Shown here piece after piece: positions 23,042-51,222 of a DNA stretch of 60,546 nucleotides. This stretch comes from a virus (Duplodnaviria > Caudoviricetes). The notes under the pieces are model-generated. The model did not search any database. It saw only the letters and a program-made list of their open reading frames with translations, and was not told the DNA's origin. Numbering within the stretch: the first letter of the stretch is position 1; each line of letters starts with the position of its first letter. Location: IMG/VR virus record IMGVR_UViG_3300030101_000172, positions 1-60,546 of that record. The stretch is one strand, 5' to 3'. Both the position numbers and the translations under genes were made by a program.

Positions 23042-23060
23042 TGTTAGTGTATCACTAACA
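23042..23060. promoter_or_regulatory. 19-bp palindrome, copy 1
   Basis: TGTTAGTG-TAT-CACTAACA. Confidence 0.8.
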
Positions 23061-23191
23061 AAAAAACATAATAAAAAGTTATTATTTACAAAGTTACTAT
23101 ATCAAACTTAATAAAAATGTGTATTACTATAATCATCAGCAAGACAATACTGTCTTTTAAAATTCGCTGGTACAATAAAAGGAGTTTAGCA

Positions 23192-23722
23192 ATGGCTAAA
23201 TCTATTAAATTTACTGCTGAGGTCGGTAATAAAATAACCTCTACTGTTAAATCTGCTCAAGCTGGTGTTAATGCGATCAACTCGCTTATACCTGTCTTAA
23301 TCAAGCACGGTTTCTTATCTACAACGTTTCTTAGTCCACATACTAAGAATACGAAAAGCACGGCAACAGTCGAGCAGTTCGATAAGATTAACTATTGTAT
23401 CGTTGCAGGTTTTTCTGCTCCAGTTCAAAAGTTGTTGGAAACACCAACTAAAGGACTGACAGATGCTAAAAAGATCTCTAAGAGATATTGGCAGCAACAG
23501 ATAGGGGCTAGACGTAACGACTTATCCAAAGCTCTTGCCAAGCGAGAGAGCGGAGGTAATGGGGCTGGTGGTAAGCCTCGCACACCTGAACAACGTGTCA
23601 GGGATAACCTTAACGATGTGCTTAAAGTAATCGAGGCTGTCGAGGACGAAAAGCAATTAGTTAAGGGCGAGGCTATCAAGCACCTTGTTAAACAAGCCGT
23701 TGCTTTACTACCTAGCAATTAA
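23192..23722 (+). CDS. Early hypothetical protein (176 aa)
   Basis: AAAGGAG RBS upstream of ATG 23192; the ORF is open from 23117. Confidence 0.75.
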   Translation: MAKSIKFTAEVGNKITSTVKSAQAGVNAINSLIPVLIKHGFLSTTFLSPHTKNTKSTATVEQFDKINYCIVAGFSAPVQKLLETPTKGLTDAKKISKRYWQQQIGARRNDLSKALAKRESGGNGAGGKPRTPEQRVRDNLNDVLKVIEAVEDEKQLVKGEAIKHLVKQAVALLPSN

Positions 23723-23733
23723 ATTTAACTAGC

Positions 23734-23771
23734 GGAGCGGAGGGAGTTACACCTCCCTCCCTCCCTTTATT
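23734..23771 (+). terminator. GC-rich hairpin, possible weak terminator or processing site
   Basis: GGAG(C)GGAGGGAG-ttacac-CTCCCTCCCTCC followed by CTTTATT. Confidence 0.5.
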
Positions 23772-23785
23772 GAAAGGACTATATC

Positions 23786-23992
23786 ATGAGAAAAGACAAT
23801 AAAACTCTTGAGGCAATCAAGAGGCGAGAGGCTAGAAAGTTTGCACAAAATAAGTTTGCTTTCATGCTCCAAGATCAACGACTAGATAACATTCAACGTC
23901 AAGAGAATGATAAGAATGTTAAAAAAATCATGACAAGTAATGACATTGATTTTAAAAAGTTAATGATTAAGAACGGAGTAAAACCAAAATGA
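23786..23992 (+). CDS. Early hypothetical basic protein
   Basis: GAAAGGA RBS, 68 aa. Confidence 0.7.
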   Translation: MRKDNKTLEAIKRREARKFAQNKFAFMLQDQRLDNIQRQENDKNVKKIMTSNDIDFKKLMIKNGVKPK

Positions 23993-24096
23993 AAGCATGC
24001 TTAATTTTCATGGCTGAACTTTTTGCCATATTTGGATTGATGGTTATGATTTACGTCATAGCATCTTTACTAGGTGTCTACTTTGATATGATCTAA
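23989..24096 (+). CDS. 35-aa single-pass membrane peptide
   Basis: ATGA overlap with the previous stop. MKACLIFMAELFAIFGLMVMIYVIASLLGVYFDMI. Followed by a terminator. Confidence 0.6.
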   Translation: MKACLIFMAELFAIFGLMVMIYVIASLLGVYFDMI

Positions 24097-24102
24097 GAAA
24101 TT

Positions 24103-24131
24103 AGCCCTCACTTCGGTGGGGGCTTTTTTTT
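24103..24131 (+). terminator. Intrinsic terminator with a UUCG tetraloop
   Basis: AGCCCTCAC-TTCG-GTGGGGGCT-TTTTTTT. Confidence 0.9.
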
Positions 24132-24220
24132 GTGCCAAAATTATTTGACACCAGTTACACGGGTAGCGTTGAGCATTAGCGATTAGTGTACAGAGTTGTT
24201 GCCATGTGTTTGTGCTATCT

Positions 24221-24239
24221 TGTTAGTGTCCCCCTAACA
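24221..24239. promoter_or_regulatory. 19-bp palindrome, copy 2 (1 mismatch)
   Basis: TGTTAGTG-TCC-CCCTAACA. Confidence 0.7.
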
Positions 24240-24315
24240 AAAAGATGCCAGTTACACGGGTAGCGTTGAGCCATTTAGACACGTGATAACTTGTTATAGT
24301 GTGTGTAGCATAGCG

Positions 24316-24334
24316 TGTTAGTGTATCCCTAACA
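24316..24334. promoter_or_regulatory. 19-bp palindrome, copy 3 (1 mismatch)
   Basis: TGTTAGTG-TAT-CCCTAACA. Confidence 0.7.
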
Positions 24335-24381
24335 AGATAACGAGTCAGTATGAAACCAGTTATGGTAGTAGCGTTGAGCCT

Positions 24382-24745
24382 AATGTTCGGTAATTTTTAT
24401 AATGTTCTGCGAATGTTCGGTGAATGTTCGGTTTTTTTACACAACATCCGTACATTATGTTTTGGTAGCATATAGTGGTGAGTTGTATCGAGCATTAGAG
24501 TTTCTTGCCTATCAGCTTTTGCAGTTTAATGTAGTTTCTTAACAGTTATATATAATGTTCGTTTTTTAAAATATTACTTCGATATGTTAGTGACACACTA
24601 ACACGTTTTGAGAATGTTCTGTAATCGAGAAGGGGTCGTCAGCAGGTTAATAAAATCCCGATCTTGCCGAACATTAGAACATTTCAGAAAAATCAAATAC
24701 TTATTCGTATACTATAAAGAACATTATAGTACATTGCAGAACATT
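24382..24745. repeat. Inverted array of AATGTTC/GAACATT heptamers (iteron-like)
   Basis: AATGTTC at 24382, 24401, 24412, 24423, 24554 and 24613. GAACATT at 24669, 24677, 24719 and 24739, plus GTACATT at 24729. Confidence 0.8.
24585..24603. promoter_or_regulatory. 19-bp palindrome, copy 4
   Basis: TGTTAGTG-ACA-CACTAACA. Confidence 0.8.
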
Positions 24746-24822
24746 ACGTTATATGGTACAATATACTACGACAGCCCACGGGTGGAGGTAATAAACCATA
24801 GAATAACACGTTTACACATTAC

Positions 24823-24851
24823 TTGACATAGGACACTATTTGTGCTATACT
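24823..24851 (+). promoter_or_regulatory. Sigma70-type early promoter
   Basis: TTGACA-17 bp-TATACT, with TG at the extended -10 position. Confidence 0.8.
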
Positions 24852-24860
24852 ATATAGATA

Positions 24861-25058
24861 ATGGAAATAGAACTGGAGGATTACATGGATACCAAAAAAG
24901 TCAAGCGAGAATACAAGAGATTACCTAAGAACACCCAATCACATTGGGAGTGGCGAGGTACTGGGTTTGTACAAGTATTCACTATCAAAGGCAATCGATA
25001 CGTGAAACATTACACACCCGATAATGTTAGTGCAACACTAACAAATAACAACAACTAA
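24861..25058 (+). CDS. Early hypothetical protein
   Basis: First ORF after the promoter. An alternative start at ATG 24885 has a GGAGG RBS. Confidence 0.65.
   Translation: MEIELEDYMDTKKVKREYKRLPKNTQSHWEWRGTGFVQVFTIKGNRYVKHYTPDNVSATLTNNNN
25025..25043. promoter_or_regulatory. 19-bp palindrome, copy 5
   Basis: TGTTAGTG-CAA-CACTAACA. Confidence 0.8.
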
Positions 25059-25078
25059 ACAAATAGAAAGGAACTACT

Positions 25079-26005
25079 ATGACTACAAATATACACAAGC
25101 TACCAAGCACCGATAATGTTAGTGATACACTAACAGAATCAGCACCGTCAATATCTTCATCGGCAATGCTAGTCGAGTTATCGATCTCTACGTGGACTGG
25201 TCGTAAGCTAGACAAGCAGGCATCACAAGTTGTTACCACAACTAACAACGCATCAAGTGGTGTCGCCAATGTACACAAGAAGTTACTCGGTGACTGTGCA
25301 GAGTTGGACATAATACAGAAGTTTGTCGGCAATGTTCGCAACGAACATTATGCCATGACAATGCCATGGTCAGACACTGGCATCCGACTGTTACCAACTG
25401 CACAGTACTTCAAGTACCACAGGGTAATGACGGACTTTGCCAACTCGCACAAAGAACTTATCACAAAGTTTCTCAATGCTTATGCCAATCGTGTCGCAGA
25501 TGCACAAGACAAACTAGGTGACTTGTTCAGACGTATGGACTACCCAAGTCCCGATCAGATAGCGAGTAAGTTCAACTTCAATATCTCATACATACCACTG
25601 CCCGAAGTCGGTGACTTTCGTATCGATATCGGCAACGAGCAGAAAGAGGTATTGCAGAAAAGCTACACCGATTACTATTCGTCTCAACTTAGTAATGCAA
25701 TGAATGACGTATGGACACGTTTGCACAAGGTACTTATCAATATGTCCGAACGCCTTGACTATGCAGACAAGGAGACGAAGAAAATATTTCGTGACACACT
25801 TGTTACGAATGTTGTTGATATTGTCGAACTGCTATCGGTTTGCAATGTCACCAAAGATAGTAGAATGGAGTCTATGCGAGTTAGCCTAGACAATGCCTTA
25901 CGTGGTGTCACACCCGATGCCTTACGTGAAGACGAGTTTCTACGTGCTGAGACCAAGCAAGCGATCGATGATGCCATCAAAGCATTACCATCACTTGATA
26001 TATAA
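25079..26005 (+). CDS. DUF3150-like helical protein
   Basis: LVELSISTWTGRKLD...MPWSDTGIRLLP...DYPS...KFNF. AGAAAGGA RBS. Adjacent to the AAA/VWA pair. Confidence 0.6.
   Translation: MTTNIHKLPSTDNVSDTLTESAPSISSSAMLVELSISTWTGRKLDKQASQVVTTTNNASSGVANVHKKLLGDCAELDIIQKFVGNVRNEHYAMTMPWSDTGIRLLPTAQYFKYHRVMTDFANSHKELITKFLNAYANRVADAQDKLGDLFRRMDYPSPDQIASKFNFNISYIPLPEVGDFRIDIGNEQKEVLQKSYTDYYSSQLSNAMNDVWTRLHKVLINMSERLDYADKETKKIFRDTLVTNVVDIVELLSVCNVTKDSRMESMRVSLDNALRGVTPDALREDEFLRAETKQAIDDAIKALPSLDI
25117..25135. promoter_or_regulatory. 19-bp palindrome, copy 6 (inside a CDS)
   Basis: TGTTAGTG-ATA-CACTAACA. Confidence 0.8.
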
Positions 26006-26017
26006 TTTAACAATAAC

Positions 26018-26036
26018 AGTTAGTGTCACACTAACA
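26018..26036. promoter_or_regulatory. 19-bp palindrome, copy 7, abutting the RBS
   Basis: AGTTAGTG-TCA-CACTAACA followed by GAAAGGA. Confidence 0.8.
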
Positions 26037-26049
26037 GAAAGGAACTATC

Positions 26050-27147
26050 ATGACTAACAATTCAGCAGTGCAGATGTATGCACAATCAATCGATCAAGTA
26101 ACCAATGCTATTAAGCAAGGTGGTCACTTACGAACTGTCCTAGTGCAAGGTCACATGGGTACGGGTAAATCTTCTATCTTGTCTAACTTGGCAAAAGAAC
26201 TTACCACACATACACCATGCTACTTTGATTGCACGACCAAAGACTTGGGTGACATTACGATACCAAAGCTAAACATGTTAGACGGCTCGGACTACGTTGC
26301 CTTTGCTACTAACGAAGAACTTGGTGTCCATCTCAACAAGCCTATCATTCTAATGATTGATGAGTATGGCAAGTCCAATCCATCGGTCAAGAATGCAATG
26401 CTACGATTGATGCTCGAACGTAAGATTGGTGGCTACACTTTGCACAAAGACAGTATCGTGTTTGCTACGACCAACTTGGGTGCAGAGGGTGTAGGTGACT
26501 TGTTACCACCACATTCACGTAATCGTATCACTATCGTTACCATGAAGAAACCTACCAACACAGAGTGGATAGAGTGGGGCATCAACAATGGTATCGACCC
26601 TACGTTGCTTGGTTGGTGTAAGGATAATCCACAGTTGTTTCATTCTTTCGAGGATGTCAAGAACCCCGAAGACAACGTGTATATCTACCACCCCAAGGCA
26701 CAGAGATCATCGTTCTTTACACCACGTTCTGCCGAGGCTTGCAGTGACTGGCTCAAATCCAGGGAACACCTCGATGACCACACACTAACGAGTTTACTCA
26801 TGGGTACTATTGGTGAGCGTGGAGCTATGGACTTGATGGCATTTGTCAAACTGGCAGACCAACTGCCTACACTTGAGAGTATCAAGAAAGAGCCTAAGAC
26901 TGCCAAGATACCTACGAGTGCAAGTGCTGTGTGCATGGTGGTTTACCGAACACTGGCATCAATAGAACGAGACTGGGTCAACGCTTGGATGGACTACCTT
27001 GTCAGACTAGACAAAGAGGCACAAGGCATGTTCGCCAATGGTGTACGTGTTCCCAAGTATGCCAAGCAGACACTTGTTATGACAAACAAGAAGTTCACAG
27101 ACTGGGCAGTGCAGAACAACTACATGTTCGCATCAGATAAGAAGTAA
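26050..27147 (+). CDS. MoxR-like AAA+ ATPase
   Basis: Walker A GHMGTGKS, Walker B LMIDE, sensor ATTN and putative arginine finger RNR. Confidence 0.85.
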   Translation: MTNNSAVQMYAQSIDQVTNAIKQGGHLRTVLVQGHMGTGKSSILSNLAKELTTHTPCYFDCTTKDLGDITIPKLNMLDGSDYVAFATNEELGVHLNKPIILMIDEYGKSNPSVKNAMLRLMLERKIGGYTLHKDSIVFATTNLGAEGVGDLLPPHSRNRITIVTMKKPTNTEWIEWGINNGIDPTLLGWCKDNPQLFHSFEDVKNPEDNVYIYHPKAQRSSFFTPRSAEACSDWLKSREHLDDHTLTSLLMGTIGERGAMDLMAFVKLADQLPTLESIKKEPKTAKIPTSASAVCMVVYRTLASIERDWVNAWMDYLVRLDKEAQGMFANGVRVPKYAKQTLVMTNKKFTDWAVQNNYMFASDKK

Positions 27148-27154
27148 CCAAAAA

Positions 27155-27173
27155 CGTTAGTGTAACACTAACA
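27155..27173. promoter_or_regulatory. 19-bp palindrome, copy 8, abutting the RBS
   Basis: CGTTAGTG-TAA-CACTAACA followed by GAAAGGAG. Confidence 0.8.
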
Positions 27174-27186
27174 GAAAGGAGTAACT

Positions 27187-28431
27187 ATGTTAAGCATAGG
27201 AAAAGAACTTACCACTGAGCAACGATTGTCCAAGGCAGTCGTTGACATCATGGGTAATCCAAAGTATGTCGCACTTGCAGGCATACTCATGATTGGCGAG
27301 AGGACAGTCAGCGATGGCGTACCAACTGCCTGCACCGATGGTGTCAATGAGATATATGGTAGGGCATTTACAGATAGTATCCCCGATGCACAACTACGTG
27401 GTGTGGTGTTGCACGAGAACTATCACAAGTTGTACAGACACCTTATCACATGGCGACACTTGTACGAGGAAGATGCAGAACTTGCCAATCGTGCATGTGA
27501 CTATGTTATCAATCTCAAGATTTACGATGACAACAAGCATGACAACTTTGCAGTTCTACCACCAATGGTTTGTCTTGACGAGCAGTTCCGAGATATGGAC
27601 ACGGCACAAGTGTTCAATATTCTCAAGAAGAAATATCGTGGTAAGCAACCACAACCCGATGGTCAACAACCGAACGGTGGATCTGGTAATGGTCAACCAA
27701 CACAAGGCGACTCGTTACCACAAGGTTTCGATCAACATGACTGGGAAGGTGCTGAGTCAATGAGTGAGCAAGACAAACGAGAACTTGCCAAGGACATTGA
27801 CGAGGCTATTCGACAAGGTGCATTGATTGCAGGCAAGATGGGTAGTGGTGGCGATCGTGACCTTGACGAACTGCTCAAACCACAGATCGATTGGCGAGAG
27901 GTGTTACGAGAGTTCATCACGTCCACATGTGCAGGCAGTGACTACTCTACGTGGCAACGACCTAACAGACGATTCGTATCTATCGGTGCATATATGCCGA
28001 GTGGTATATCGGAGAAAGTGGGGGAACTCGTTATCGCTATCGACACAAGTGGTTCGATCGGTCAACTAGAACTCACTGCTTTTTTATCCGAGGTACAATC
28101 GATCTGCGATACTGTGTCACCCGATAAGGTACGACTACTCTATTGGGACACACAAATCTGTCAAGACGAGAAGTACGAGATGCACGAGATCGATACCTTG
28201 GTCGAGTCCACCAAGCCACAAGGTGGTGGTGGCACTATGGTCGAGTGTGTACCCGATCACATAACGAGTGAGGGTATCAAACCTCAAGCATGTATCGTGC
28301 TGACCGATGGCTATCTAGGTGGCAGTTGGGGTTCGTGGTCTTGTCCAGTGCTATGGTGTATCATGGACAACGAGCAAGCCAATCCGACTGTCGGTAAAAC
28401 TGTTCACATAAAAGGAAGGAGTATATTATGA
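27187..28431 (+). CDS. Metallopeptidase-like + VWA domain protein (DUF2201-like)
   Basis: TACTDG, HExxH (LHENYH), a Gln/Gly linker, MIDAS motif IDTSGSI, GGGGT and LTDGY. Confidence 0.85.
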   Translation: MLSIGKELTTEQRLSKAVVDIMGNPKYVALAGILMIGERTVSDGVPTACTDGVNEIYGRAFTDSIPDAQLRGVVLHENYHKLYRHLITWRHLYEEDAELANRACDYVINLKIYDDNKHDNFAVLPPMVCLDEQFRDMDTAQVFNILKKKYRGKQPQPDGQQPNGGSGNGQPTQGDSLPQGFDQHDWEGAESMSEQDKRELAKDIDEAIRQGALIAGKMGSGGDRDLDELLKPQIDWREVLREFITSTCAGSDYSTWQRPNRRFVSIGAYMPSGISEKVGELVIAIDTSGSIGQLELTAFLSEVQSICDTVSPDKVRLLYWDTQICQDEKYEMHEIDTLVESTKPQGGGGTMVECVPDHITSEGIKPQACIVLTDGYLGGSWGSWSCPVLWCIMDNEQANPTVGKTVHIKGRSIL

Positions 28432-28622
28432 CACGTTATCAGAACAGCCAAATGATAGAGGTAGAGGAAGAGTTCTACGGCTATCTAAACAACGATGGTA
28501 TGACCAACGAGCAAGCCATCGTTAAGATCAAAGAGAATCATGGAGAACATTGGGAAGAATATATCCGTGATGTAATAGCAAGAGAAGTAACAACAATTAA
28601 CAACATAAAGGAGAAGTTCTAA
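28428..28622 (+). CDS. Hypothetical protein
   Basis: AAGGAG RBS, coupled to neighbours on both sides. Confidence 0.65.
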   Translation: MTRYQNSQMIEVEEEFYGYLNNDGMTNEQAIVKIKENHGEHWEEYIRDVIAREVTTINNIKEKF

Positions 28623-29779
28623 TGTACGGAGTATCACAGTATGGCATGTCTAGGTTTGGTCTAAACTGCTTTGAGCAGGTGGAGGCTTGTTACAACAATA
28701 CCAAACCAATCATCAGTAAAAATCAAACGTTGCAACACGATATACGACCTATCGGTGACAGAGGTAGAAAGCATGAGCGTATCGCTAAAGTTTCCGATAC
28801 TTGTTACATGTTACTCAATGGCGAGTTAGGTGACAATATGACATGGTATTACAAGTATGAGGATAACCACCAACTCCATACTATCCAAGATGTTAGTGCA
28901 ACACTAACATTTGCACCAGTAGTGTGGACTAGGCATGATGGCTACGACACGATACGTATTCGTAATGGGTCGGGTCACTATGCTCACAACTCTAGGTACT
29001 CGTTCTTATCAAGATGTTTACCTAGTGATATGCACGCTATCATTGGCGATGGTAAGCAGTACGTAGTCTATGAGGGTGTGAGGTATCTCTTACCCAAGAG
29101 TATGTGGTTTCCAAACAACTACTACAATACTCAAAATGGTTTGAAGAAAGATGACGAGCATTACCTAGTGTTTAGGAGAGATCATGCAGATAATCTCAGT
29201 GATACCAAGTTCAAACTTACTGGTAACAAGTTTACGTGGCATGCCAAACGTTATGGTGTGGATGTGGCAACTAAGAACAAGTACAAGTCACAGATCAACG
29301 AACTGTGGGACTACATGTGTACAGTTGCACCTATGTTCAACAATATCTTTGGTGGCAGGGACAGAGGTAGCAGTGGTAACTATTACCAAGAACAATGGCA
29401 AACACGACAACTCAAGTACAAAGCTAAACGTGAGGCACTCAACGAGGGTCGTGAGGAAGTGCAGAACTATGTGGAGAATGTTCTTAACATACCACAAGAG
29501 AGAGTTCACTACATGCGTGATAGTCAGATATACCAAGACTCGCCATGGAAACATGCTCATTTCCCAGTGCCTTTGATAGAGCAGATACTGGCTGATGACC
29601 AACACCCCATGCGTCTTAACTTGGTAAGAGATATTATCAATGACATGGAAGACATAGTGGACTGTCAAGACAAGCAAGAGGCATCGAAGATACGTTCGCA
29701 GTACAATCGATGGTTTAACAAGCACATGGGTTTCACAAAACTTGTGGCTGATGAACACATAACAAAGGAGGAAGTGTAA
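28622..29779 (+). CDS. Early hypothetical protein (385 aa)
   Basis: AAAGGAG RBS and TAATG coupling. Confidence 0.8.
   Translation: MYGVSQYGMSRFGLNCFEQVEACYNNTKPIISKNQTLQHDIRPIGDRGRKHERIAKVSDTCYMLLNGELGDNMTWYYKYEDNHQLHTIQDVSATLTFAPVVWTRHDGYDTIRIRNGSGHYAHNSRYSFLSRCLPSDMHAIIGDGKQYVVYEGVRYLLPKSMWFPNNYYNTQNGLKKDDEHYLVFRRDHADNLSDTKFKLTGNKFTWHAKRYGVDVATKNKYKSQINELWDYMCTVAPMFNNIFGGRDRGSSGNYYQEQWQTRQLKYKAKREALNEGREEVQNYVENVLNIPQERVHYMRDSQIYQDSPWKHAHFPVPLIEQILADDQHPMRLNLVRDIINDMEDIVDCQDKQEASKIRSQYNRWFNKHMGFTKLVADEHITKEEV
28891..28909. promoter_or_regulatory. 19-bp palindrome, copy 9 (inside a CDS)
   Basis: TGTTAGTG-CAA-CACTAACA. Confidence 0.8.
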
Positions 29780-30804
29780 TGACTAATAAGATATCGTATT
29801 GGAAAAGATACAAGGACAACTATGCACGAGTGTCTCTTATCAAACCATGGGTCGAGGGAGACCTATCGACAAAACCTGCTGTGTGGAAAACAAACCAAGA
29901 AACTTTAGAACAGTTTGTGCAGCAGTTGAGTAAAGAACTACGTGGTGTTAAGTTTACACGTAGGAGAGATGACTCTTACTGGATATACAGAGATGATAAC
30001 CCATACGTGATGGGTTGGGTAGGGAGAGGTCTTAACTTCCTATCCACCACCACGAGTGATGATTATCTGTTTTGTGTATGTGCTAGGACTATCAACAACT
30101 GGAAGTACAACGATGGTAGTTGGCAACACTATGCCAAGATGTCAACGAAATGGGACAAAGCAATGAAGAATGCTAAAACTTATTTACGTGTGATGTCACC
30201 TCACGACATGGCATACATAAATCAAGATCGCATCGTGCAATCATTGGGTAATATCACTCGACAAGAGGAGAACAAGTTGGGTAATCTTTACAAGTCTTTG
30301 TTCAACTCTGTGCAAGAAAGCTATGACTACATTAGAAAGTTCAAGGCTAATCGTGCCAAGGAACATACTGTGTTACAGTTCATGCACAAGATATACACAG
30401 AGAAACGTGAGTTGTTGGAAGACGATCCCGACTTTCTCAAAACATACGAGGACTTCCTTGCACAAGAGCAACAACTGAGTGAAGCCCTGAAGAAACAACA
30501 CAAGGTGTACCACATACGTGTTTACGAAGATGCTTTCAAAGTTAGGAAGTTTGATGTAACATTTATTGGTAATGCAGAGGGAGGCACACTTGGCACAAGT
30601 CAACCGATAGAGGATATGAGTCTGTCACCCAAGGTGGTGCTTGATGATAGCACGTTACCCGAAGACTTGTTGGGTAAGGTATCTGTGTTAACAATGTTAG
30701 ACGAGGGAGGGTTTGTCGATGAAGTTGGCTACAAAATTGATTCCACGATGTTTTATGTCATCACGGAAAGAGACTTCCACATCTCATCAGATACCACACG
30801 ATAA
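29779..30804 (+). CDS. Early hypothetical protein (341 aa)
   Basis: AAGGAGG RBS. C-terminal LPEDLLGKVSVLTML...VDEVGYK. Confidence 0.8.
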   Translation: MTNKISYWKRYKDNYARVSLIKPWVEGDLSTKPAVWKTNQETLEQFVQQLSKELRGVKFTRRRDDSYWIYRDDNPYVMGWVGRGLNFLSTTTSDDYLFCVCARTINNWKYNDGSWQHYAKMSTKWDKAMKNAKTYLRVMSPHDMAYINQDRIVQSLGNITRQEENKLGNLYKSLFNSVQESYDYIRKFKANRAKEHTVLQFMHKIYTEKRELLEDDPDFLKTYEDFLAQEQQLSEALKKQHKVYHIRVYEDAFKVRKFDVTFIGNAEGGTLGTSQPIEDMSLSPKVVLDDSTLPEDLLGKVSVLTMLDEGGFVDEVGYKIDSTMFYVITERDFHISSDTTR

Positions 30805-31042
30805 CAAGATATATCGTGTTTCAATAGACAATGGTAGCAAATGTGTTAAAATAACACCGATTGGTATCAATGGTATTGACAACCAAGCAGAGGGTTGGTA
30901 TGATTCTGTTGATGTACTACCTAGATGGGTGCAAGAGAAGATGGCATTACTTATGATGTCTGATGCTCAACCACCTATCTACGAAGTGGATGACGTAGGC
31001 AAAAGGATTAACAACGATATCTTTTGGATATATCATCCGTAA
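30755..31042 (+). CDS. Hypothetical protein related to the C-terminus of the upstream gene
   Basis: LPRWVQEKMALLMM...VDDVGKR. The start is uncertain; the ORF is open from 30713. Confidence 0.65.
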   Translation: MSSRKETSTSHQIPHDNKIYRVSIDNGSKCVKITPIGINGIDNQAEGWYDSVDVLPRWVQEKMALLMMSDAQPPIYEVDDVGKRINNDIFWIYHP

Positions 31043-31051
31043 CAATTAAAA

Positions 31052-31070
31052 TGTTAGTGTGGCACTAACA
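31052..31070. promoter_or_regulatory. 19-bp palindrome, copy 10
   Basis: TGTTAGTG-TGG-CACTAACA. Confidence 0.8.
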
Positions 31071-31089
31071 GTTTTGGGAAACCTTAATT

Positions 31090-31108
31090 TGTTAGTGTCG
31101 CACTAACA
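31090..31108. promoter_or_regulatory. 19-bp palindrome, copy 11
   Basis: TGTTAGTG-TCG-CACTAACA. Confidence 0.8.
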
Positions 31109-31278
31109 TTGAAACCAGTTTTTTTGGGAGGTTAAAATGAGACAAACAATAACCAAGAGAATATGCAATTTGATTTTAAAGTATTGTTATAATGATATTT
31201 CTAAAGTGCAACACATAAAATGTTTCTGCGATAAAATTTTAAAAGATAAAGAGACACAATCAGATTGGGAAACAAGTA

Positions 31279-31509
31279 ATGGATAAGCACAGTAGACGAA
31301 GAGCAAGTATAAGAGATTTGCAAAGACGATTAGAAATTAGAAACTCGAAGAGGACACCTAAAGAGTTAGATATGCACGAGAGGTTTGAAGATGACCCAAG
31401 AGCATTGAAAGAAATAGAATATGGTAGAGTGGTGCGAAAGCCTACAACACCTATGAGTGGTGGGTCTACATTAGGCACAGTAGAGTTTGAAAATAAAAAA
31501 TGGTCATGA
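31279..31509 (+). CDS. Hypothetical protein
   Basis: Co-oriented and overlapping the next gene. Confidence 0.55.
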   Translation: MDKHSRRRASIRDLQRRLEIRNSKRTPKELDMHERFEDDPRALKEIEYGRVVRKPTTPMSGGSTLGTVEFENKKWS

Positions 31510-31814
31510 CACCCGAACAGAAAGTAAAGAAGAAAGTTGTGGCACAACTAAAAGAAATGGGTGCATATTACTTTACACCCATGACTGGTGGTTATGGTTA
31601 CAGTGGTGTACCCGACATAGTGGGGTGTTACAAAGGATATTTCTTTGGTATAGAGTGTAAGGCAAAGGGGAGCAACGAGCCTACACCATTACAGCAAAAG
31701 AACTTAGAACAAATACTGGAGCAAGGAGGCTATGCCGTTGTCATACATGGTGAAAACGTAGACAAGGTCAGTATTAAAGATTTAATAGAAACGTATAGGT
31801 TAGGTAAGCAATGA
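31500..31814 (+). CDS. VRR-NUC domain nuclease
   Basis: TPEQKVK...GVPDIVGC...FFGIECKA...PTPLQ PD-(D/E)XK pattern. Confidence 0.88.
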   Translation: MVMTPEQKVKKKVVAQLKEMGAYYFTPMTGGYGYSGVPDIVGCYKGYFFGIECKAKGSNEPTPLQQKNLEQILEQGGYAVVIHGENVDKVSIKDLIETYRLGKQ

Positions 31815-31949
31815 GAGCCTTTATATCCATTGCAGTAGAGGCGATGCTTTTTTTTGATAAGCTCCTTTCTGTCGTGACTCTACCATTGAAGAATGTAAAA
31901 CTAGTCCCCCTTTGCGAACCCAACAATTTTGTTGGGAGGGGGCATTATT

Positions 31950-32321
31950 ATGAGTAAATATATAAGGAGCAAAAGATTACAGTTTCATAATCATCATGCA
32001 CATGAAGAGAAGATAGATATATCTCCTTACCACGTTGACAATTACAGACATTCTTGCAGGGAGGTCAGCACACGGTGCATACGGTGTGGCACGTTACCAC
32101 GTACCATAGGAGAGGGGATACATTTTTCTTGTAGTTTATTTGTGAAGTGTGACGATTGTTATGCGATCGAGTCGCACTCATACGAAAACCACGAGGGATT
32201 TAATTGGTTGTTTATGGATAATGATTTGAAACAAAAGACTGGAGAGGCAAGATCATTATCATTATTTAACAGATATAAAAAAGAGAAAAAGGAGGAAGAT
32301 GATGACGATAGTATGTATTAA
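31950..32321 (+). CDS. Hypothetical Cys-rich protein
   Basis: CIRC and CDDC pairs. GGAGG upstream of ATG 31950. Confidence 0.55.
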   Translation: MSKYIRSKRLQFHNHHAHEEKIDISPYHVDNYRHSCREVSTRCIRCGTLPRTIGEGIHFSCSLFVKCDDCYAIESHSYENHEGFNWLFMDNDLKQKTGEARSLSLFNRYKKEKKEEDDDDSMY

Positions 32322-32460
32322 TTGTGGAGGTGTTGTCAGACACACCGAAGGTGTAGCAATGTGCGTTTCATGTGGTCAGTACGAACTGCCTTTCGATCAA
32401 ACTATAATAGATGCAGAGGTACAAGAGCAGATGGAAAAAGACGATGCAGAAACCGAATAG
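32302..32460 (+). CDS. 52-aa zinc-ribbon protein
   Basis: AAGGAGG RBS. MTIVCINCGG...MCVSCGQ with an acidic tail. Translated by hand. Confidence 0.65.
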   Translation: MTIVCINCGGVVRHTEGVAMCVSCGQYELPFDQTIIDAEVQEQMEKDDAETE

Positions 32461-32755
32461 AATAGATTTATTAAAAAGAGCCATAGAATATACAGATGGC
32501 GATAGACGCACGGACTATGGCAGTCCTATTGAAAACCACGAACACATTGCGATGATATTTAATTCTATCACAGGTAAACGACTTTCAGCAAAAGACATTG
32601 CGTTGGTGCAGGTAGCAACCAAGTTAGCTAGAATGACATCATCTCCCAAGAAAGACGATCACTATATAGATGCAATGGCTTACATAGGTATAGCTTACGA
32701 ATGCGAAGAAGATATAAGACGTGATGGTGGTCGTTACTTTTACGAGGACAAGTGA
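32444..32755 (+). CDS. DUF6378-like protein
   Basis: GDRRTDYGSPIENHEHIA...KLAR...DDHYIDAMAY. Start placed at ATG 32444. Confidence 0.7.
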   Translation: MQKPNRIDLLKRAIEYTDGDRRTDYGSPIENHEHIAMIFNSITGKRLSAKDIALVQVATKLARMTSSPKKDDHYIDAMAYIGIAYECEEDIRRDGGRYFYEDK

Positions 32756-34596
32756 TGGATTTAATTACGTTAGACTTTGAAACATATTACAGCAAAGATT
32801 ATTCTTTGGGTAAACTCACAACAGAAGAATACATACGTGACCCAAGGTTTGAGGTCATTGGTGTTGGTATAAAACTAAACGATAAAGAAACGGAGTGGGC
32901 GAGTGGAACACATAAACAACTTAGAGAGTACTTACAAACGAACTTCCCCTGGGCAAACGCTATGGTACTTGCTCATAACACTATGTTTGACGGTGCTATT
33001 CTTAATTGGGTCTTTGATATTAGTCCTAGGGTGTATACCGATACTTTGTGTATCTCCCGTGGTTTTCACGGGGTGGAAGATAGCAGTAGTCTCAAGGCGA
33101 TATCTGAAAGATATAATCTCGGAGTTAAAGGCACAGAGGTATTCGAGGCGATCGGCAAGAAGAGAGAGGACTTTACGGAAAGTGAACTAAGTGCTTACGG
33201 AGATTACTGTGTTAATGATGTTGATCTCACATATAAAGCGTTCTTGCACATGGCAAAAGATTTTCCCAAGAGTGAATTAAAGTTAATAGATTTAACTTTG
33301 AGGATGTTTGTAGAGCCAGTATTAGATTTAGATCTAGGTATGCTCGAACAACACCTTGCAGAAACACGTTATGAGAAAGAGTCATTACTACAACAATGTG
33401 CTGTCATGGGTGTGTCAAAAGATGATTTGATGAGCAACCCTAAGTTTGCAGAAGCACTGAGGCGTTTGGGTGTAGAGCCACCTATGAAGATAAGTCCTAC
33501 AACTGGACAAGAAACATTAGCATTGGCTAAGTCTGATGAAGACTTCAAGTCTTTGGCAGAACACGAGAACCCACAAGTAAAAATTTTAGTCAATGCTAGA
33601 CTTGGTAACAAATCAACCTTGGAAGAAACAAGGACACAGAGATTTATTGACATATCAAAGAGAGGATTACTGCCAGTGCCAGTAAGATACTATGCCGCTC
33701 ATACTGGTAGATGGGGTGGTGACGATAAGATAAATTTACAAAACTTACCGAGTCGTGGCAAGAATGGTAAGAAACTAAAACGTAGTATCATTGCACCAAA
33801 GGGTTACACTATCATAGATGCTGACTCATCACAGATAGAGGCTAGAGTCTTGGCTTGGCTTGCAGGGCAAGATGATTTGACCGAGGCATTTGCCAATGGT
33901 GAAGATGTTTATGTAAACATGGCATCAAAGATATATAACAAACCCGAAGAAGAGATAACAAAGGATGAGAGGTTTGTAGGTAAGACAACAATACTGGGTG
34001 CAGGGTATGGCATGGGTGCTTTGAAGTTTCAGTCACAACTACAGACTTTTGGCTTTGACATGCAGATTGAAGAAGCACGGAGGGTCATAGGTGTTTATCG
34101 TGATACTAACTGGAAGATAAACAAGTTATGGCGTGATGCTCAAGACGTGCTACGGGCCCTGTACAACAAAGAACACCCAACACTCTTGGGATGTGGTGAA
34201 GTCTTGGAGACTGTGCCAAAAGAGAATGGTATACGTTTACCATCGGGATTGATGATGAGATACGGAGACTTGGCTTGTGAACAAAGTGATGGCAGAGTTG
34301 AATACAATTACAGAACTAGGAATGGTAGAACTCGTATCTATGGTGGTAAAGTTATAGAGAATGTATGCCAAGCTATAGCTAGATGTATTATAGGTGAGCA
34401 GATGCTCAAGATAAATAAAAGACACCGTGTCGTGTTAACAGTACATGACTCTATAGCTGCATGCGTAAAAGATGAAGAAATCAAAGAGGCACAGACTTAT
34501 GTAGAGGAGTGTATGAAGTGGACACCTGACTGGGCAAGAGGTTTACCGATCAACTGCGAATCGGGTGTGGGTAAATCATACGGAGATTGTGAATGA
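32752..34596 (+). CDS. polA: Family A DNA polymerase with 3'-5' exonuclease domain
   Basis: Exo I LDFET, Exo II AHNTMFD, motif A DSSQIEARVLA, motif B RFVGKTTILGAGYG, motif C TVHDS. Confidence 0.95.
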   Translation: MMDLITLDFETYYSKDYSLGKLTTEEYIRDPRFEVIGVGIKLNDKETEWASGTHKQLREYLQTNFPWANAMVLAHNTMFDGAILNWVFDISPRVYTDTLCISRGFHGVEDSSSLKAISERYNLGVKGTEVFEAIGKKREDFTESELSAYGDYCVNDVDLTYKAFLHMAKDFPKSELKLIDLTLRMFVEPVLDLDLGMLEQHLAETRYEKESLLQQCAVMGVSKDDLMSNPKFAEALRRLGVEPPMKISPTTGQETLALAKSDEDFKSLAEHENPQVKILVNARLGNKSTLEETRTQRFIDISKRGLLPVPVRYYAAHTGRWGGDDKINLQNLPSRGKNGKKLKRSIIAPKGYTIIDADSSQIEARVLAWLAGQDDLTEAFANGEDVYVNMASKIYNKPEEEITKDERFVGKTTILGAGYGMGALKFQSQLQTFGFDMQIEEARRVIGVYRDTNWKINKLWRDAQDVLRALYNKEHPTLLGCGEVLETVPKENGIRLPSGLMMRYGDLACEQSDGRVEYNYRTRNGRTRIYGGKVIENVCQAIARCIIGEQMLKINKRHRVVLTVHDSIAACVKDEEIKEAQTYVEECMKWTPDWARGLPINCESGVGKSYGDCE

Positions 34597-35261
34597 GTAT
34601 ATCTCCTTGGTCGTTCAGTAGAATTAAGTCTTTTGAACAATGTCCCAAACAGTTCTATCATTTGAAGATAGCAAAAGATTACGAAGAAGAGCAGACAAGT
34701 GCCATGACCTACGGCACAGAACTCCATGCTGTGGCAGAGAATTACGTGCAACATGGCGAGGACATACCTAGAAGATTTGGATTTATGAAACCAGTGCTTG
34801 ATTCTCTTAAAAACAAAAAAGGTAAGAAGTATTGTGAAGTTCGTATGGGACTCACACAGGATCTCAGTCCGTGTAGCTTTACGTCTAAACAAGTTTGGTG
34901 GAGAGGTATAGCAGACTTAATAATCATAGATGATACAAAAGCATGGGTCATAGATTACAAGAGTAGCAAGTCTGCAAAGTATGCAGACAAAGGTCAGCTA
35001 GAACTTATGGCTCTATCTGTATTTAGTTACATGCCAAAGATAGACACAATAAATGCAGGATTGTTATTTGTTGTGTGTAAACAACTTGTCAAGCAAGTAT
35101 ACACACGTTCTGGAAGCAACGAGCTTTGGGATAAGTGGATTTCTAATTACAAAAAAATGGAAACTGCGTATAATAAAGATGTTTGGAACGCAAGACCAAG
35201 CGGATTGTGTCGTAGGCATTGTCCAGTAATAGAGTGTATACACAACGGGAGTAACAACTGA
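34593..35261 (+). CDS. PD-(D/E)XK exonuclease (RecB/Cas4-like)
   Basis: SFSRIKSFEQCP, RGIADL, VIDYKS, QLELMA and a C-terminal Cys cluster. Confidence 0.85.
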   Translation: MSISPWSFSRIKSFEQCPKQFYHLKIAKDYEEEQTSAMTYGTELHAVAENYVQHGEDIPRRFGFMKPVLDSLKNKKGKKYCEVRMGLTQDLSPCSFTSKQVWWRGIADLIIIDDTKAWVIDYKSSKSAKYADKGQLELMALSVFSYMPKIDTINAGLLFVVCKQLVKQVYTRSGSNELWDKWISNYKKMETAYNKDVWNARPSGLCRRHCPVIECIHNGSNN

Positions 35262-35512
35262 TGGCTTATACAAAAACAAAAAGACCTTACAAAAAAGAAT
35301 ACGAACAACAAAAGAAACGAGGAGAACATCCGAATCGCATGGAGCGTCAGAAAGCTAGACGTGCATTGGATAAAAAAGGTGTTAGCAGAAAAGGAAAAGA
35401 TGTCAGTCACAAGAAAATGTTAAGTAAAGGTGGCAGTAATAAAGATGGTTATTTTTTAGAAAGTCCATCGAAAAACAGAAGTAGAAACGGAAAAAAGAAA
35501 AAAAAGGCTTGA
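35261..35512 (+). CDS. Small HNH-like endonuclease
   Basis: KDVSHKKMLSKGGSN...SPSKNRSRN. Confidence 0.65.
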   Translation: MAYTKTKRPYKKEYEQQKKRGEHPNRMERQKARRALDKKGVSRKGKDVSHKKMLSKGGSNKDGYFLESPSKNRSRNGKKKKKA

Positions 35513-35580
35513 TTTAAAGCCCGTACAGTAGGGGTAACGATACCCCCGTGTGTGATTGTACCTAGAAAAAGGAGTGAAAT

Positions 35581-36981
35581 ATGGGTCTTGCAGTATTAAA
35601 AAACACGTCAACAGGTATGCGTTCATACATATACCCAGGGACTTTCAAACCATTTAAACACCAAGAAGAGACAGCATCTTTCTTGGCTACAAGAAAAAGA
35701 GCGTTTTGTTTCAACGAACAAGGCACTGGCAAAACTGCTAGTTCTATATGGGCATCAGACTTTTTGATGGACATTGGAGCAGTCAATCGTGTGCTTGTCA
35801 TATGCCCTTTATCGATAATGGATTCTGTGTGGAGAGATGATTTGATGACCTTTGCACCACACAGAACTGTTGAAGTAGCACATGGCACACCCGACAAGAG
35901 AAAGAAAATAATAGAAGAAGGTTCAGACTTTGTAGTTATAAACTACGATGGCGTTGAGATTGTATCAGATACAATATTAAAAGGTGGTTTTGATTTGATA
36001 ATAATCGATGAAGCCACACATTATAAAAACCCAAGAACAACAAGATGGAAAGTATTAAATAAGTTGTTAACAGATGATACGTGGTTGTGGATGATGACGG
36101 GAACTCCTGCGGCACAGAGTCCTCTTGATGCTTATGGATTGGCAAAGTTGATGAACCCAACTGTTGTGCCAAAGTTTTTTGGCTCTTTTCGTGACATGGT
36201 GATGACACAAATATCTAGGTTCAAATGGATTCCAAAAGATTCTTCTATAAAAACTGTACATAGAATACTGCAACCTGCCATTAGATTTACAAAGAAGAAC
36301 TGTTTAGATTTGCCACCCATGACATATGTCAAGAGAGAGGTAGAACTTACAAGGCAACAAACTAAATACTACAAAGAACTAAAAACAAAACTAAGAATGA
36401 AAATAACAGGAGAAGAGATAACCGCTAACAATGCCGCAATAGGTATGAACAAGTTACTACAAATAGCATCAGGTGCTGTTTATACAGACAAGGGTGATGT
36501 ATTAGAGTTTGATATAAAGAACAGATACAAAGTATTAAAAGAAGTTATAGATGAGGCAAGTCAGAAGGTTCTTGTGTTTGTTCCTTTCAGACACACAATA
36601 GATTTACTACGAGATAAACTAATAGCAGATAAGATACCCACAGATATTATTCGTGGTGATGTGCCTGCACACAAGAGAACAGAAATATTCAAAGCATTTC
36701 AAGAAACAACAATACCTAAAGTTTTATTAATTCAACCACAATCTGCGGCTCATGGTGTAACACTTACGAAAGCCAATGTGGTTGTGTGGTGGAGTCCCAT
36801 AAGTTCGTTAGAAACTTATGCTCAAGCCAATGCTAGAGTACACAGAGCAGGACAGACACACAAATGCACTGTAGTGCAACTGCAAGGTTCTAACACAGAA
36901 AAACACGTTTACAGGTTATTAGATAACAGAATACACCTACACACAAAAATAATAGAACTTTACAAAGAAATACTTGACTAA
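35581..36981 (+). CDS. SNF2-family helicase
   Basis: EQGTGKT, IIDEATHYKN, MTGTP, AHGVTLT and QANARVHRAGQ. Confidence 0.92.
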   Translation: MGLAVLKNTSTGMRSYIYPGTFKPFKHQEETASFLATRKRAFCFNEQGTGKTASSIWASDFLMDIGAVNRVLVICPLSIMDSVWRDDLMTFAPHRTVEVAHGTPDKRKKIIEEGSDFVVINYDGVEIVSDTILKGGFDLIIIDEATHYKNPRTTRWKVLNKLLTDDTWLWMMTGTPAAQSPLDAYGLAKLMNPTVVPKFFGSFRDMVMTQISRFKWIPKDSSIKTVHRILQPAIRFTKKNCLDLPPMTYVKREVELTRQQTKYYKELKTKLRMKITGEEITANNAAIGMNKLLQIASGAVYTDKGDVLEFDIKNRYKVLKEVIDEASQKVLVFVPFRHTIDLLRDKLIADKIPTDIIRGDVPAHKRTEIFKAFQETTIPKVLLIQPQSAAHGVTLTKANVVVWWSPISSLETYAQANARVHRAGQTHKCTVVQLQGSNTEKHVYRLLDNRIHLHTKIIELYKEILD

Positions 36982-37002
36982 GCTATCTCTAGTAACTATA
37001 TA
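36974..37002 (+). promoter_or_regulatory. Possible sigma70-type promoter
   Basis: TTGACT-17 bp-TATATA. The -10 box is imperfect. Confidence 0.4.
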
Positions 37003-37033
37003 TAAAGTATTAATAGATAAACGGAGAATGTAA

Positions 37034-37432
37034 ATGGAAGAATCTTCCCTATCTGCTGAAAAGTTAACTAAAGCGTATATAAGAATAAGAGAGGAACGAG
37101 CATCGCTCAGTACCTCCTACAAAGAAAAAGATACAGCGTTGGTTAATCAGCTAGACATGGTGCGAAAAGGACTTCTCGATTACTGTGAGAAACACGGTGT
37201 TGAGAGTGTGAAAACTTCCGAAGGTCTCTTTTATAGAACGACAAAGACAAAATATTGGACTAGCGACTGGGAATCCATGCACAAGTTTATACTACAGCAT
37301 GAAGTGCCTGAGTTGTTTGATAAGCGTCTTAACCAGTCAAACTTAAAAGAGTTTTTGGAAGATAACCCCGATGTATATCCCGAAGGTCTTAACAAAGACA
37401 CGGAGTACGTCATAACTGTGAGGAAAAAATAA
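37034..37432 (+). CDS. Conserved hypothetical replication-region protein
   Basis: GGAGA RBS, coiled-coil N-terminus, VKTSEGLFYR...SDWE. Confidence 0.75.
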   Translation: MEESSLSAEKLTKAYIRIREERASLSTSYKEKDTALVNQLDMVRKGLLDYCEKHGVESVKTSEGLFYRTTKTKYWTSDWESMHKFILQHEVPELFDKRLNQSNLKEFLEDNPDVYPEGLNKDTEYVITVRKK

Positions 37433-37713
37433 TGGTAGGAAAATATGTACCAATAGAGGATGTGGCTAAACACTTTTCAGTTTCCATATCCACAATCCGA
37501 GCATGGGTGCGTCAAAAAGAAATACCCGATGATACTTACATAAAAGTGGGTAATACTTATCGGTTTAATATTGAGGACGTATCCGATGCTTTAACAAACA
37601 AGTCTAAACCATTGAAAGACAACGACAATATTGTCAGGGAAACTTGGCATCACGAAGATGACGTTGATAAAGAACATGGTATAGAAAAAGTAAACCTCGA
37701 CCAAGATTATTAG
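37432..37713 (+). CDS. Helix-turn-helix DNA-binding protein (excisionase/MerR-like)
   Basis: IEDVAKHFSVSISTIRAWVRQKEIP...IKVGNTYRF. Confidence 0.85.
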   Translation: MVGKYVPIEDVAKHFSVSISTIRAWVRQKEIPDDTYIKVGNTYRFNIEDVSDALTNKSKPLKDNDNIVRETWHHEDDVDKEHGIEKVNLDQDY

Positions 37714-37723
37714 GAGAGTGCAA

Positions 37724-38389: not shown

Positions 38390-38400
38390 TCCCTCAATAA

Positions 38401-38458
38401 TACCACTACTCCTTTTTTAAACCTTTCTCCATGGGTAGTTGTTGGAGGGGTAGTGGTA
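38401..38458 (+). other. Long intergenic stem-loop upstream of the primase gene
   Basis: TACCACTACTCCT pairs with AGGGGTAGTGGTA around a pyrimidine-rich loop. Confidence 0.6.
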
Positions 38459-38478
38459 GCTTAACTTTATGGTTTGTC

Positions 38479-41280: not shown

Positions 41281-41479
41281 TTTAAACCCTGATGGGGTTC
41301 ACATAGTTGTAAACTGGGATAGCATGGGAATCAATGCCTCTGTGTTTATATTATGTATAAATACTGTGGAGGCTACCAAGCAAATAAAAAGAATATTTAT
41401 ATCTAAAGGTTGGGAAAGCGAGATACGCACAGTCGTTGAAGATGGCAAATTAGGTGTGCGTGTATGGCGTATGTCTTAG
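41258..41479 (+). CDS. Hypothetical protein
   Basis: Last plus-strand gene, ending GKLGVRVWR. Its stop overlaps the stop of the converging late gene. Confidence 0.65.
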   Translation: MSVLKTYDLNPDGVHIVVNWDSMGINASVFILCINTVEATKQIKRIFISKGWESEIRTVVEDGKLGVRVWRMS

Positions 41480-48246: not shown

Positions 48247-48247
48247 T

Positions 48248-50209: not shown

Positions 50210-50213
50210 GTTA

Positions 50214-51221: not shown

Positions 51222-51222
51222 G

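Follow-up and report, generated by a model that had tools for sequence, protein, structure and literature searches.

We describe here an array of palindromes in the early region of an uncultured phage genome, IMG/VR record IMGVR_UViG_3300030101_000172. The window that was analysed is the entire virus record, 60,546 bases in length with a CheckV completeness of 98%, and it contains eleven copies of a 19-bp palindrome, TGTTAGTG-N3-CACTAACA, between positions 23,042 and 31,108. Related phages carry arrays of the same kind at the same gene junctions, each with a palindrome of its own. Judged from these comparisons of sequence, the palindromes may be multi-site double-stranded DNA operators for a phage-encoded symmetric dimer that would act on an early operon transcribed by the host, a reading to which we give about an even chance.

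A pattern scan that allowed at most two mismatches returned exactly 11 matches to the palindrome where 0.02 were expected, and none of 100 shuffles gave 11. The core GTTAG-N7-CTAAC also has 11 matches against an expectation of 0.10. An earlier note on this DNA, made from the sequence alone, had listed eleven copies and their centres and had noticed none elsewhere, and the scan returned the same starts and the same centres. There are no copies in the remaining 52 kb of this near-complete genome outside the 8.1-kb array and the reversed-pattern control also gave 0. The arms are perfect in seven of the eleven copies. The 3-bp centres are free, with nine different triplets among the 11 sites (in order TAT, TCC, TAT, ACA, CAA, ATA, TCA, TAA, CAA, TGG, and TCG). 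The bare half-site GTTAGTG occurs 28 times and 20 of these occurrences lie within the 11 palindromes; the eight isolated half-sites are not above chance (10.9 expected, all occurrences).

The first copy (23042..23060, perfect, centre TAT) is located in a divergent intergenic region, 131 nt 5' of the ATG of the first early gene. Copies 2 (24221..24239) and 3 (24316..24334) are in a non-coding repeat region and both have the right arm CCCTAACA, and copy 4 (24585..24603, centre ACA) is perfect. Copy 5 (25025..25043, perfect) covers the 3' end of a small open reading frame (ORF; 24861-25058) and lies 35 nt 5' of the ATG of the DUF3150-like gene, and copy 6 (25117..25135, perfect) occupies codons 13-19 of that gene. 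Copies 7 (26018..26036, outer T changed to A) and 8 (27155..27173, outer T changed to C) each adjoin a GAAAGGA ribosome-binding site, which belongs to the AAA gene (26050) in the case of copy 7 and to the DUF2201/VWA gene (27187) in the case of copy 8, as the earlier note had described. Copy 9 (28891..28909, perfect) is within the gene encoding a 385-residue protein, where it corresponds to a low-confidence loop directly before a conserved APIVW motif. The array ends with a tandem pair of perfect copies, 10 (31052..31070) and 11 (31090..31108), that are separated by 38 nt start to start and are located between a consensus promoter and the replication block; copy 11 is 28 nt 5' of the ATG at 31137. 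The three copies inside ORFs (25025, 25117, and 28891) all encode the peptide V-S-x-T-L-T, which the earlier note had seen as well. The palindrome itself dictates this peptide, since each of the other two frames is closed by a stop codon (TAG in the left arm or TAA in the right arm) and a single frame is open.

The array was compared among 84 sources consisting of the window and 83 loci, with two contigs counted twice. Eighty of the loci were fetched by homologs of the 385-residue protein in a search that gave 327 related IMG/VR stretches. A dominant palindrome with at least four exact copies was found in 60 of the 84 sources (4-20 copies each), and most of the 24 sources without one lack upstream cover. 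The closest comparison is with locus L005, whose aligned DNA is ~96% identical and in which 10 sites are kept. The sites are under selection, as none of the 160 arm positions has changed between the two, compared with 3 of the 30 centre positions and 381 of the 9236 positions in the rest of the aligned region. Locus L007 is more distant (28-34% protein identity) and also has 10 sites. These are syntenic and include counterparts of copies 6, 7, and 8: they precede the same genes, and one lies within the N-terminal part of the DUF3150-like gene. Six of the L007 sites read GTTAGTC-N3-GACTAAC, in which the innermost pair is flipped, and the other four read GTTAGTCAGCCACTAAC. Further relatives have the variants GTAGTGA-N-TCACTAC, GTTAGTGA-NN-TCACTAAC, GTTAGGG-N3-CCCTAAC, TTAGGGAATTCCCTAA, TTAGGGAA-N-TTCCCTAA, TTCGGGCA-NN-TGCCCGAA, CTAGGAC-NN-GTCCTAG, GTTATGGG-NN-CCCATAAC, TCCCGTC-N3-GACGGGA, and GTTAGC-N6-GCTAAC.

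In five relatives that are 95-100% complete, 7-11 copies are found inside one block of 7-15 kb and the reversed-pattern controls gave 0. One genome of 61.8 kb, for example, has its 10 sites in 12.8 kb, and 11 sites are found in 13.7 of 62.3 kb, in 14.9 of 70.3 kb, and in 13.3 of 58.2 kb. The description of the array as tiling the early region holds for this genome; some relatives have one site further into the replication block. Within the operon the sites are located at the junctions between a stop codon and a ribosome-binding site. Of 351 distinct sites, 117 end 10-24 nt 5' of a start codon with a Shine-Dalgarno motif, compared with 24.6 +/- 4.1 (maximum 37) in 200 trials of random placement within the same spans. 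Between palindrome classes the replication proteins still share 64-76% identity, and the early-block proteins are far more divergent.

The element is symmetric and has no apparent direction. Several lineages have palindromes that are perfect through the centre, and in locus L036 all ten sites read TTAGGGAATTCCCTAA. Self-complementary bases in the loop would be of no benefit to a hairpin. The central base on the coding strand is C at 57 sites, G at 39, A at 27, and T at 26, which is near symmetric. Mismatches are found in 84 of 2177 arm-pair cells and include 14 G·T and 19 A·C pairs. There is thus no wobble bias, whereas selection on RNA structure predicts an excess of G·T. The information content is ~0 beyond 10 nt on each side of the centre apart from slight upstream A-richness and purines at the ribosome-binding site, and the information profile around the palindromes contains neither a polarity signal nor an attached -35/-10. 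Since a perfect palindrome has no direction and its flanks have no signal, nothing in the element could orient a polymerase. Fixed arms together with free centres are characteristic of a dimer that reads B-form DNA through the major groove. This pattern is the reverse of that expected for RNA-binding proteins and the N4 polymerase, which read loops. The proposal in the earlier note that the array is bound by a dimeric, probably phage-encoded protein is the best fit to the comparative data, given the symmetry, the free centres, the lack of polarity and wobble, and the separate variant in each relative.

The early operon (25079..31042, + strand) encodes the DUF3150-like protein, the AAA protein (N4 gp24-like), the DUF2201 metallopeptidase/VWA protein, a 64-residue ORF, the 385-residue protein, a 341-residue ORF, and a 109-residue ORF. 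Two consensus promoters of the sigma-70 type, both on the + strand, serve this block. One is located 5' of the operon at 24823..24851 (TTGACA-17-TATACT with TG) and its counterparts in L007 and L036 match at 12/12. The other is located at 30876..30904 (TTGACA-17-TATGAT with TG), 150-190 nt 5' of the terminal pair of palindromes, and has counterparts in the same two loci. Terminators follow the first gene pair. From these promoter sequences the block is probably read by the host sigma-70 RNA polymerase, and because the promoters are conserved the host polymerase probably transcribes through the sites. The palindromes themselves do not have the form of an intrinsic terminator (a G+C-rich hairpin with a U-run), as A or purine runs follow the + strand copies; a terminator scan found some copies to be terminator-like on the - strand only. 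Metatranscriptome contigs from four runs cover scattered pieces of the stretch from which neither ends nor strand can be read, and the lack of cover elsewhere is not informative. Contigs from three of the metatranscriptome libraries (X18, X19, and X24), found at 30797-31025, cover ~30800-31025 at 100% identity. The top word depth on the stretch (up to 16.4) is found at 30800-31025, which spans the promoter at 30876, and DNA carry-over may contribute to it.

The sequence comparisons establish the sites and the selection on them, together with their symmetry, placement, and spread through the family and the conserved host-type promoters; a protein that binds the sites, its identity, and the sign of the regulation are what we infer from them. 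The regulation would proceed as follows. A two-fold symmetric dimer would read both 8-bp arms in successive major grooves and ignore the 3-bp centre. About ten sites per genome would mark the early operon, on which host sigma-70 RNA polymerase would start at the consensus promoters. The product of the first early gene would be the dimer and would bind to the site upstream of its own gene, resulting in autoregulation, as well as to the junction sites. As the dimer accumulates, transcription would be blocked or silenced at many points and early expression would be shut off or paced. Negative control would be the most likely action. The terminal pair between the promoter and the replication genes would suggest pacing of the entry into the next block rather than simple repression. 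The protein and its sites would co-evolve, giving each phage lineage a specificity of its own.

The best candidate for the protein that reads the palindromes is the product of the first early gene (23192..23722, + strand), a basic all-helical protein of 176 residues with an isoelectric point of 10.0. We propose it tentatively, at well below an even chance. Its predicted structure has a mean predicted local distance difference test (pLDDT) value of 84.9. Prediction as a homodimer gave a score of 0.86 compared with 0.44 for the best control; among proteins of solved structure, 20 of 30 homo-pairs and 1 of 23 single chains come up to that mark, and as the alignment used here was our own these counts are rough. 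Three runs agree in at least 87% of the contacts, with a partner pLDDT of at least 82. A homolog is found directly 3' of the first palindrome in ~24 loci. A profile search detected the family in 30 of the 84 sources; the upstream DNA is missing from most of the rest. The ratio of identity within palindrome classes to that between classes is 1.69 (0.34/0.20) for this family and 1.03-1.23 for 14 other families. A long basic helix in these proteins carries residues that are specific to the palindrome class, such as KRYWQQQIGARRND in the phages with TTAGTG. In locus L035 (21 kb with 10 kb of upstream cover) both the first early gene and the array are missing while the early and replication genes are otherwise the same, and only two divergent palindromes remain, before ORFs of 169 and 305 residues.

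Several results weigh against this candidate and against the operator reading as a whole. The 176-residue protein has no recognisable DNA-binding domain, with no match in Pfam or PHROGs, and Foldseek against the PDB gave no match at E <= 0.001. Because the fold is unmatched in the PDB, its DNA binding is something that we infer. Specific co-variation of the protein with the palindromes did not stand up to a Mantel test over 13 loci, in which r was 0.65 for this protein, 0.64 for the DUF3150-like protein, and 0.64 for the VWA protein; judged from these correlations, the co-variation may reflect shared ancestry. The joint absence of the first early gene and the array in L035 is a single case. 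The earlier note had named this protein among the candidate binders, and it gains circumstantial support from the homodimer score, the synteny, and L035. The distance between the TTAG and CTAA half-sites varies by lineage (N7, N8, and N9), and such variation is easier to reconcile with a hairpin than with a rigid dimer. The left arm is off consensus 59 times compared with 33 for the right arm; this excess could be a hint of polarity or could result from overlap with upstream stop codons. The third of the sites located directly 5' of a ribosome-binding site would be predicted equally by a promoter or an RNA element. Finally, a block at the terminal pair would also silence the replication genes, and this fits poorly with a simple early shut-off.

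Two other proteins were considered as readers and rejected. The earlier note had named the helix-turn-helix (HTH) protein at 37432..37713 as a possible binder, but its HTH region (…VSISTIRAWVRQ…) is essentially the same in 19 homologs from at least eight palindrome classes. It probably binds a conserved target that is unrelated to the palindromes. This protein (HTH_17; + strand) has an acidic C-terminal tail with a D/E-rich end, and its gene is kept beside that of the single-stranded DNA-binding protein (SSB) in 19 loci. The 83-109-residue protein (30713-31042) has no class-specific basic segment. For the DUF3150-like protein, which the earlier note had also named, the data speak neither in favour nor against.

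The alternative that deserves the most attention, and that we nevertheless consider unlikely, is that the palindromes are hairpin promoters of the type found in phages N4 and LUZ7, in which DNA hairpins, one per early gene, would be used by an unrecognised phage RNA polymerase that is either injected or made early. The nearest cultured relatives of the AAA and DUF2201/VWA proteins are N4-like phages (N4 gp24-like, 24-31% identity). The first leftward gene after the replication block encodes a 2256-residue polyvalent protein, which is where N4 encodes its virion polymerase, and the sites are enriched directly before a ribosome-binding site and a start codon. The 385-residue protein folds confidently with no match in the PDB, so that it could have an activity not seen before. 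The N4 early promoters are hairpins with a 3-nt loop, and LUZ7 has nine early transcription start sites, most of them marked by a hairpin (stem of 4 bp or more, 3-nt loop), and two strong hairpins in tandem that are 33 nt apart, compared with 38 nt for the terminal pair described here. The two systems are therefore alike in having inverted repeats with a 3-nt centre ahead of early genes, a tandem pair, and a shared AAA/VWA module. They differ in that the loop and stem bases of a hairpin in N4 or LUZ7 are conserved and strand-specific, which gives the promoter its direction, and that a virion polymerase of the T7 family reads the hairpin, whereas in the window and its relatives the loops are free or palindromic, no such polymerase is detectable, and the promoters are of the host type. 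Sites that are palindromic through the centre, as in all ten sites of L036, form the same hairpin on both strands, and free centres and empty flanks provide no direction. In N4 and LUZ7 transcription starts 11-14 nt downstream of the hairpin centre. At most gene-proximal sites of the array the Shine-Dalgarno motif starts 0-10 nt 3' of the palindrome, so that the same spacing would place many transcript starts within or at this motif. The block is moreover already served by conserved consensus sigma-70 promoters and three of the copies are intragenic. Sequence searches of the 2256-, 1529-, 385-, and 341-residue proteins (PHROGs and PDB sequences) found no phage RNA polymerase, neither a virion enzyme of the T7 family nor a heterodimeric RNAPII, although a very divergent enzyme would be compatible with this result. 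PF00940 had no six-frame match in a search that also matched no control genome, and the sole hint of a polymerase is a sub-threshold match to RPOL_N (E = 0.009). That the palindromes are promoters of a wholly unrecognised phage transcription machine, formed by the 385-residue protein, the 341-residue protein, or a virion-protein module of the 2256- and 1529-residue proteins, is a long shot. If it were true, an abundant marine phage lineage would have an N4-like host-independent early programme and a new kind of polymerase.

A role as RNA is harder still to support than hairpin promoters in general and we think it distinctly improbable. The palindromes would then be hairpins in a polycistronic early mRNA that serve as processing or stabilising signals, as translational operators, or, where copies pair, as duplexes cut by RNase III. 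All of the copies are in a block transcribed from the + strand and are found at junctions of stop codons and ribosome-binding sites. For each copy the predicted RNA fold is a hairpin of 7 bp closed by a 3-nt loop (-6.9 kcal/mol). The tandem pair (31052/31090) can form one long stem (-38.2 kcal/mol, z = -7.3), and the two copies flanking the start of the DUF3150-like gene can pair (-21.7 kcal/mol, z = -5.3). One contig from a metatranscriptome library spans 31038-31192 and gives weak support, as such libraries may contain DNA. The single hairpins, however, are no more stable than shuffled sequence (z about -1), and each genome keeps one stem sequence with loops that vary freely, which is the reverse of the usual selection on RNA-protein contacts or structure. 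There is no preference for G·U (14 compared with 19), symmetry is kept in several lineages at positions that would be unpaired in the loop, and no Rfam family matched the window. Non-transcriptional cis elements are improbable as well. These would include a parS-like site for tethering or clamp loading, a signal that controls DNA entry, or boundaries for modular recombination between co-infecting relatives. About ten palindromes of 16-19 bp in one fifth of a genome resemble arrays of parS or of KorB operators, in which a palindrome of 13-16 bp is repeated on one replicon, and the combination of conserved replication proteins with divergent early-block proteins fits modular exchange at the block boundary. 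Against this, a scan of 37 ORFs with Pfam and/or PHROGs, which did not extend to many of the small ORFs, gave no ParB-like or recombinase domain, and the tight coupling to gene starts is unexpected for a tether or an entry signal. Least probable is that the sites are bound by a transcription factor of the host, for instance a response regulator like CtrA. The spacing of GTTAG-N7-CTAAC resembles that of the CtrA box TTAA-N7-TTAA, a likeness that the earlier note had pointed out. The half-sites of the array are GTTAG and CTAAC, and relatives have other arms and N7, N8, or N9 spacing even though their replication proteins are 64-76% identical. In the prokaryote genomes of 185,579 species (596 Gb) the exact palindrome was found in 40 stretches, 39 of which have a single site, and no phage-like array was among them. 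The idea of a host factor is not supported, and binding by a phage-encoded dimer remains the reading that we prefer.

Operators for such a dimer can be compared with several systems of known sites. Their action would resemble that of stoperators or of the KorB/KorA operators, though with symmetric sites and in a phage of lytic type. In Streptomyces phage phiC31, conserved inverted repeats (CIRs) of ~17 bp are found across the early region and are bound by a phage repressor; the phage is temperate. On plasmid RK2, the KorB operator (OB) has the core TTTAGCGGCTAAA and the oligonucleotide for the KorA operator (OA) is TGTTTAGCTAAACA. KorB is a CTP-dependent clamp of the ParB family and KorA is an HTH protein. 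Like the array, the RK2 operators are short palindromes in multiple copies on one replicon, where dimeric readers silence operons, partly from a distance. The RK2 half-sites TGTTTAGCTAAACA and TTTAGCGGCTAAA resemble the TGTTAG..CTAACA and GTTAGC-N6-GCTAAC described here, which may be a coincidence. No domain of the KorB or KorA type was found in the window and the candidate reader has no fold match in the PDB.

The earlier note had likened the array to the stoperators of mycobacteriophages. The stoperators of cluster A mycobacteriophages (L5 gp71-type repressor) are asymmetric 13-bp sites that are bound by a monomer via two domains, an HTH and a stoperator domain. Their orientation follows transcription, more than 20 sites are spread over the whole genome, and they serve lysogenic immunity; the repressor halts elongation as well as initiation and its specificities differ among related phages (PMC6550527). 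What the two share is many copies of a short site for a phage regulator, which in the window would be the putative dimer, in the short intergenic spaces within operons and at a promoter. The likeness does not extend further, as the array is two-fold symmetric, has no strand polarity, and has its 11 sites in 8.1 of 60.5 kb. No integrase or CI-type repressor was recognisable among the proteins scanned. A monomeric repressor with an HTH and a stoperator domain was also not found, and the candidate at 23192-23722 is predicted to be a homodimer.

Motif- and name-based searches of the literature returned unrelated papers and no description of the array. The main text of a paper on uncultivated HTVC023P-type phages does not mention promoters, palindromes, inverted repeats, N4-like phages, VWA, or MoxR. 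Operator arrays with many sites have precedents. The form described here, which is symmetric, co-evolving, and shared throughout a family, lies at the junctions of the early genes in an uncultured marine lineage and has a candidate reader of unmatched fold, is a new version of such arrays. The lineage is widespread in marine viromes, as seen from the 327 related IMG/VR stretches and from the presence of most of the stretch in DNA runs of six studies (X1-X17); small shares of the stretch in other runs are not evidence of habitat or expression. Dozens of related phages, each with its own near-invariant palindrome in about ten copies at the same gene junctions, provide a natural experiment. Identification of the protein that reads the palindromes would give a new protein family that recognises nucleic acids by sequence and has its specificity code built in. 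It would also make the timing of early genes accessible in phages that are beyond culture so far, and would supply orthogonal operator-regulator pairs.

The genome is organised in three gene blocks, which are leftward from 1 to 22,890, rightward from 23,117 to 41,479, and leftward from 41,476 to 60,021. The left block includes the terminase, portal, and capsid genes, and the right leftward block includes the 2256-residue polyvalent protein, a 1529-residue protein, and an ejection protein. In the rightward block the early operon is followed by the replication genes, which encode DNA polymerase A, a PD-(D/E)XK nuclease, a SNF2 helicase, the HTH_17 protein, a T7-like SSB, and a DUF927 primase. 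No tRNA gene was found in the window. The DUF3150 assignment is based on matches at E <= 1 for 15 of 19 family members (best 1e-6). Among cultured phages, the terminase has its nearest relatives in the Pelagibacter (SAR11) phages HTVC027P and HTVC023P (45-47% identity). In HTVC027P, whose terminase is 47% identical, the early region is unrelated. Megablast of the early block against 50,697 phage records gave no match, and neither did tblastn of the 385- and 341-residue proteins.

The 385-residue protein (28622-29779, + strand) is a member of a large family without a name, of which 329 representatives were found at E <= 0.001. Its model is confident (pLDDT 86.9) and has a beta-rich N-terminal half and a helical C-terminal half. 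It has no match in Pfam, PHROGs, or PDB sequences and none by Foldseek at E <= 0.001. The 341-residue ORF (29779-30804, + strand) overlaps the next ORF of 109 residues (30713-31042, + strand) by ~90 nt, the two being in different frames. A protein of ~300 residues followed by one of ~83-149 residues is found in 26 loci, and the two genes overlap in some of these and are separate in others. The 2256-residue protein (41476-48246, - strand) has an LPD39 domain at residues 1366-1514, in keeping with a polyvalent protein that is probably injected. Its C-terminal part is DarB-like or 'PLxRFG' and is common to phages of 57-63 kb that infect Vibrio, Klebsiella, Pseudomonas, and rhizobia. The first ~1350 residues of this protein and its 1529-residue neighbour (52155-56744, - strand) had no match. 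Searches of the ESM Atlas gave matches only to unnamed viral clusters and polyvalent-protein domains.

One of the 40 prokaryotic stretches with the exact palindrome has more than one copy. This is L100, from a Lewinella metagenome-assembled genome, in which three exact copies 44-45 bp apart are found at 5743-5850. In eight of the loci (L007, L011, L022, L023, L026, L030, L056, and L060), the motif GA(A/T)ACCAG is found a few bases 3' of some palindromes.

The stretch between the 23192-23722 gene and the DUF3150-like gene is non-coding and rich in repeats. A second repeat array at 24382-24745 contains 10 of the window's 25 GAACATT/AATGTTC heptamers within 364 bp. Six AATGTTC heptamers (24382-24619, some of them 11 nt apart) are followed by four GAACATT heptamers (24669-24745), and the array is located just 5' of the consensus promoter at 24823. 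These heptamers could be origin iterons or the sites of a second regulator. Another repeat, CCAGTTAC(N8)GCGTTGAGC, has three copies (24151-24174, 24248-24271, and 24356-24379) that are interleaved with palindromes 2 and 3, and the related sequence GAAACCAGTT (31111-31120) follows the last palindrome. The third copy of this repeat provides the TTGAGC of a promoter-like sequence, TTGAGC-18-TATAAT, that is conserved in L007.

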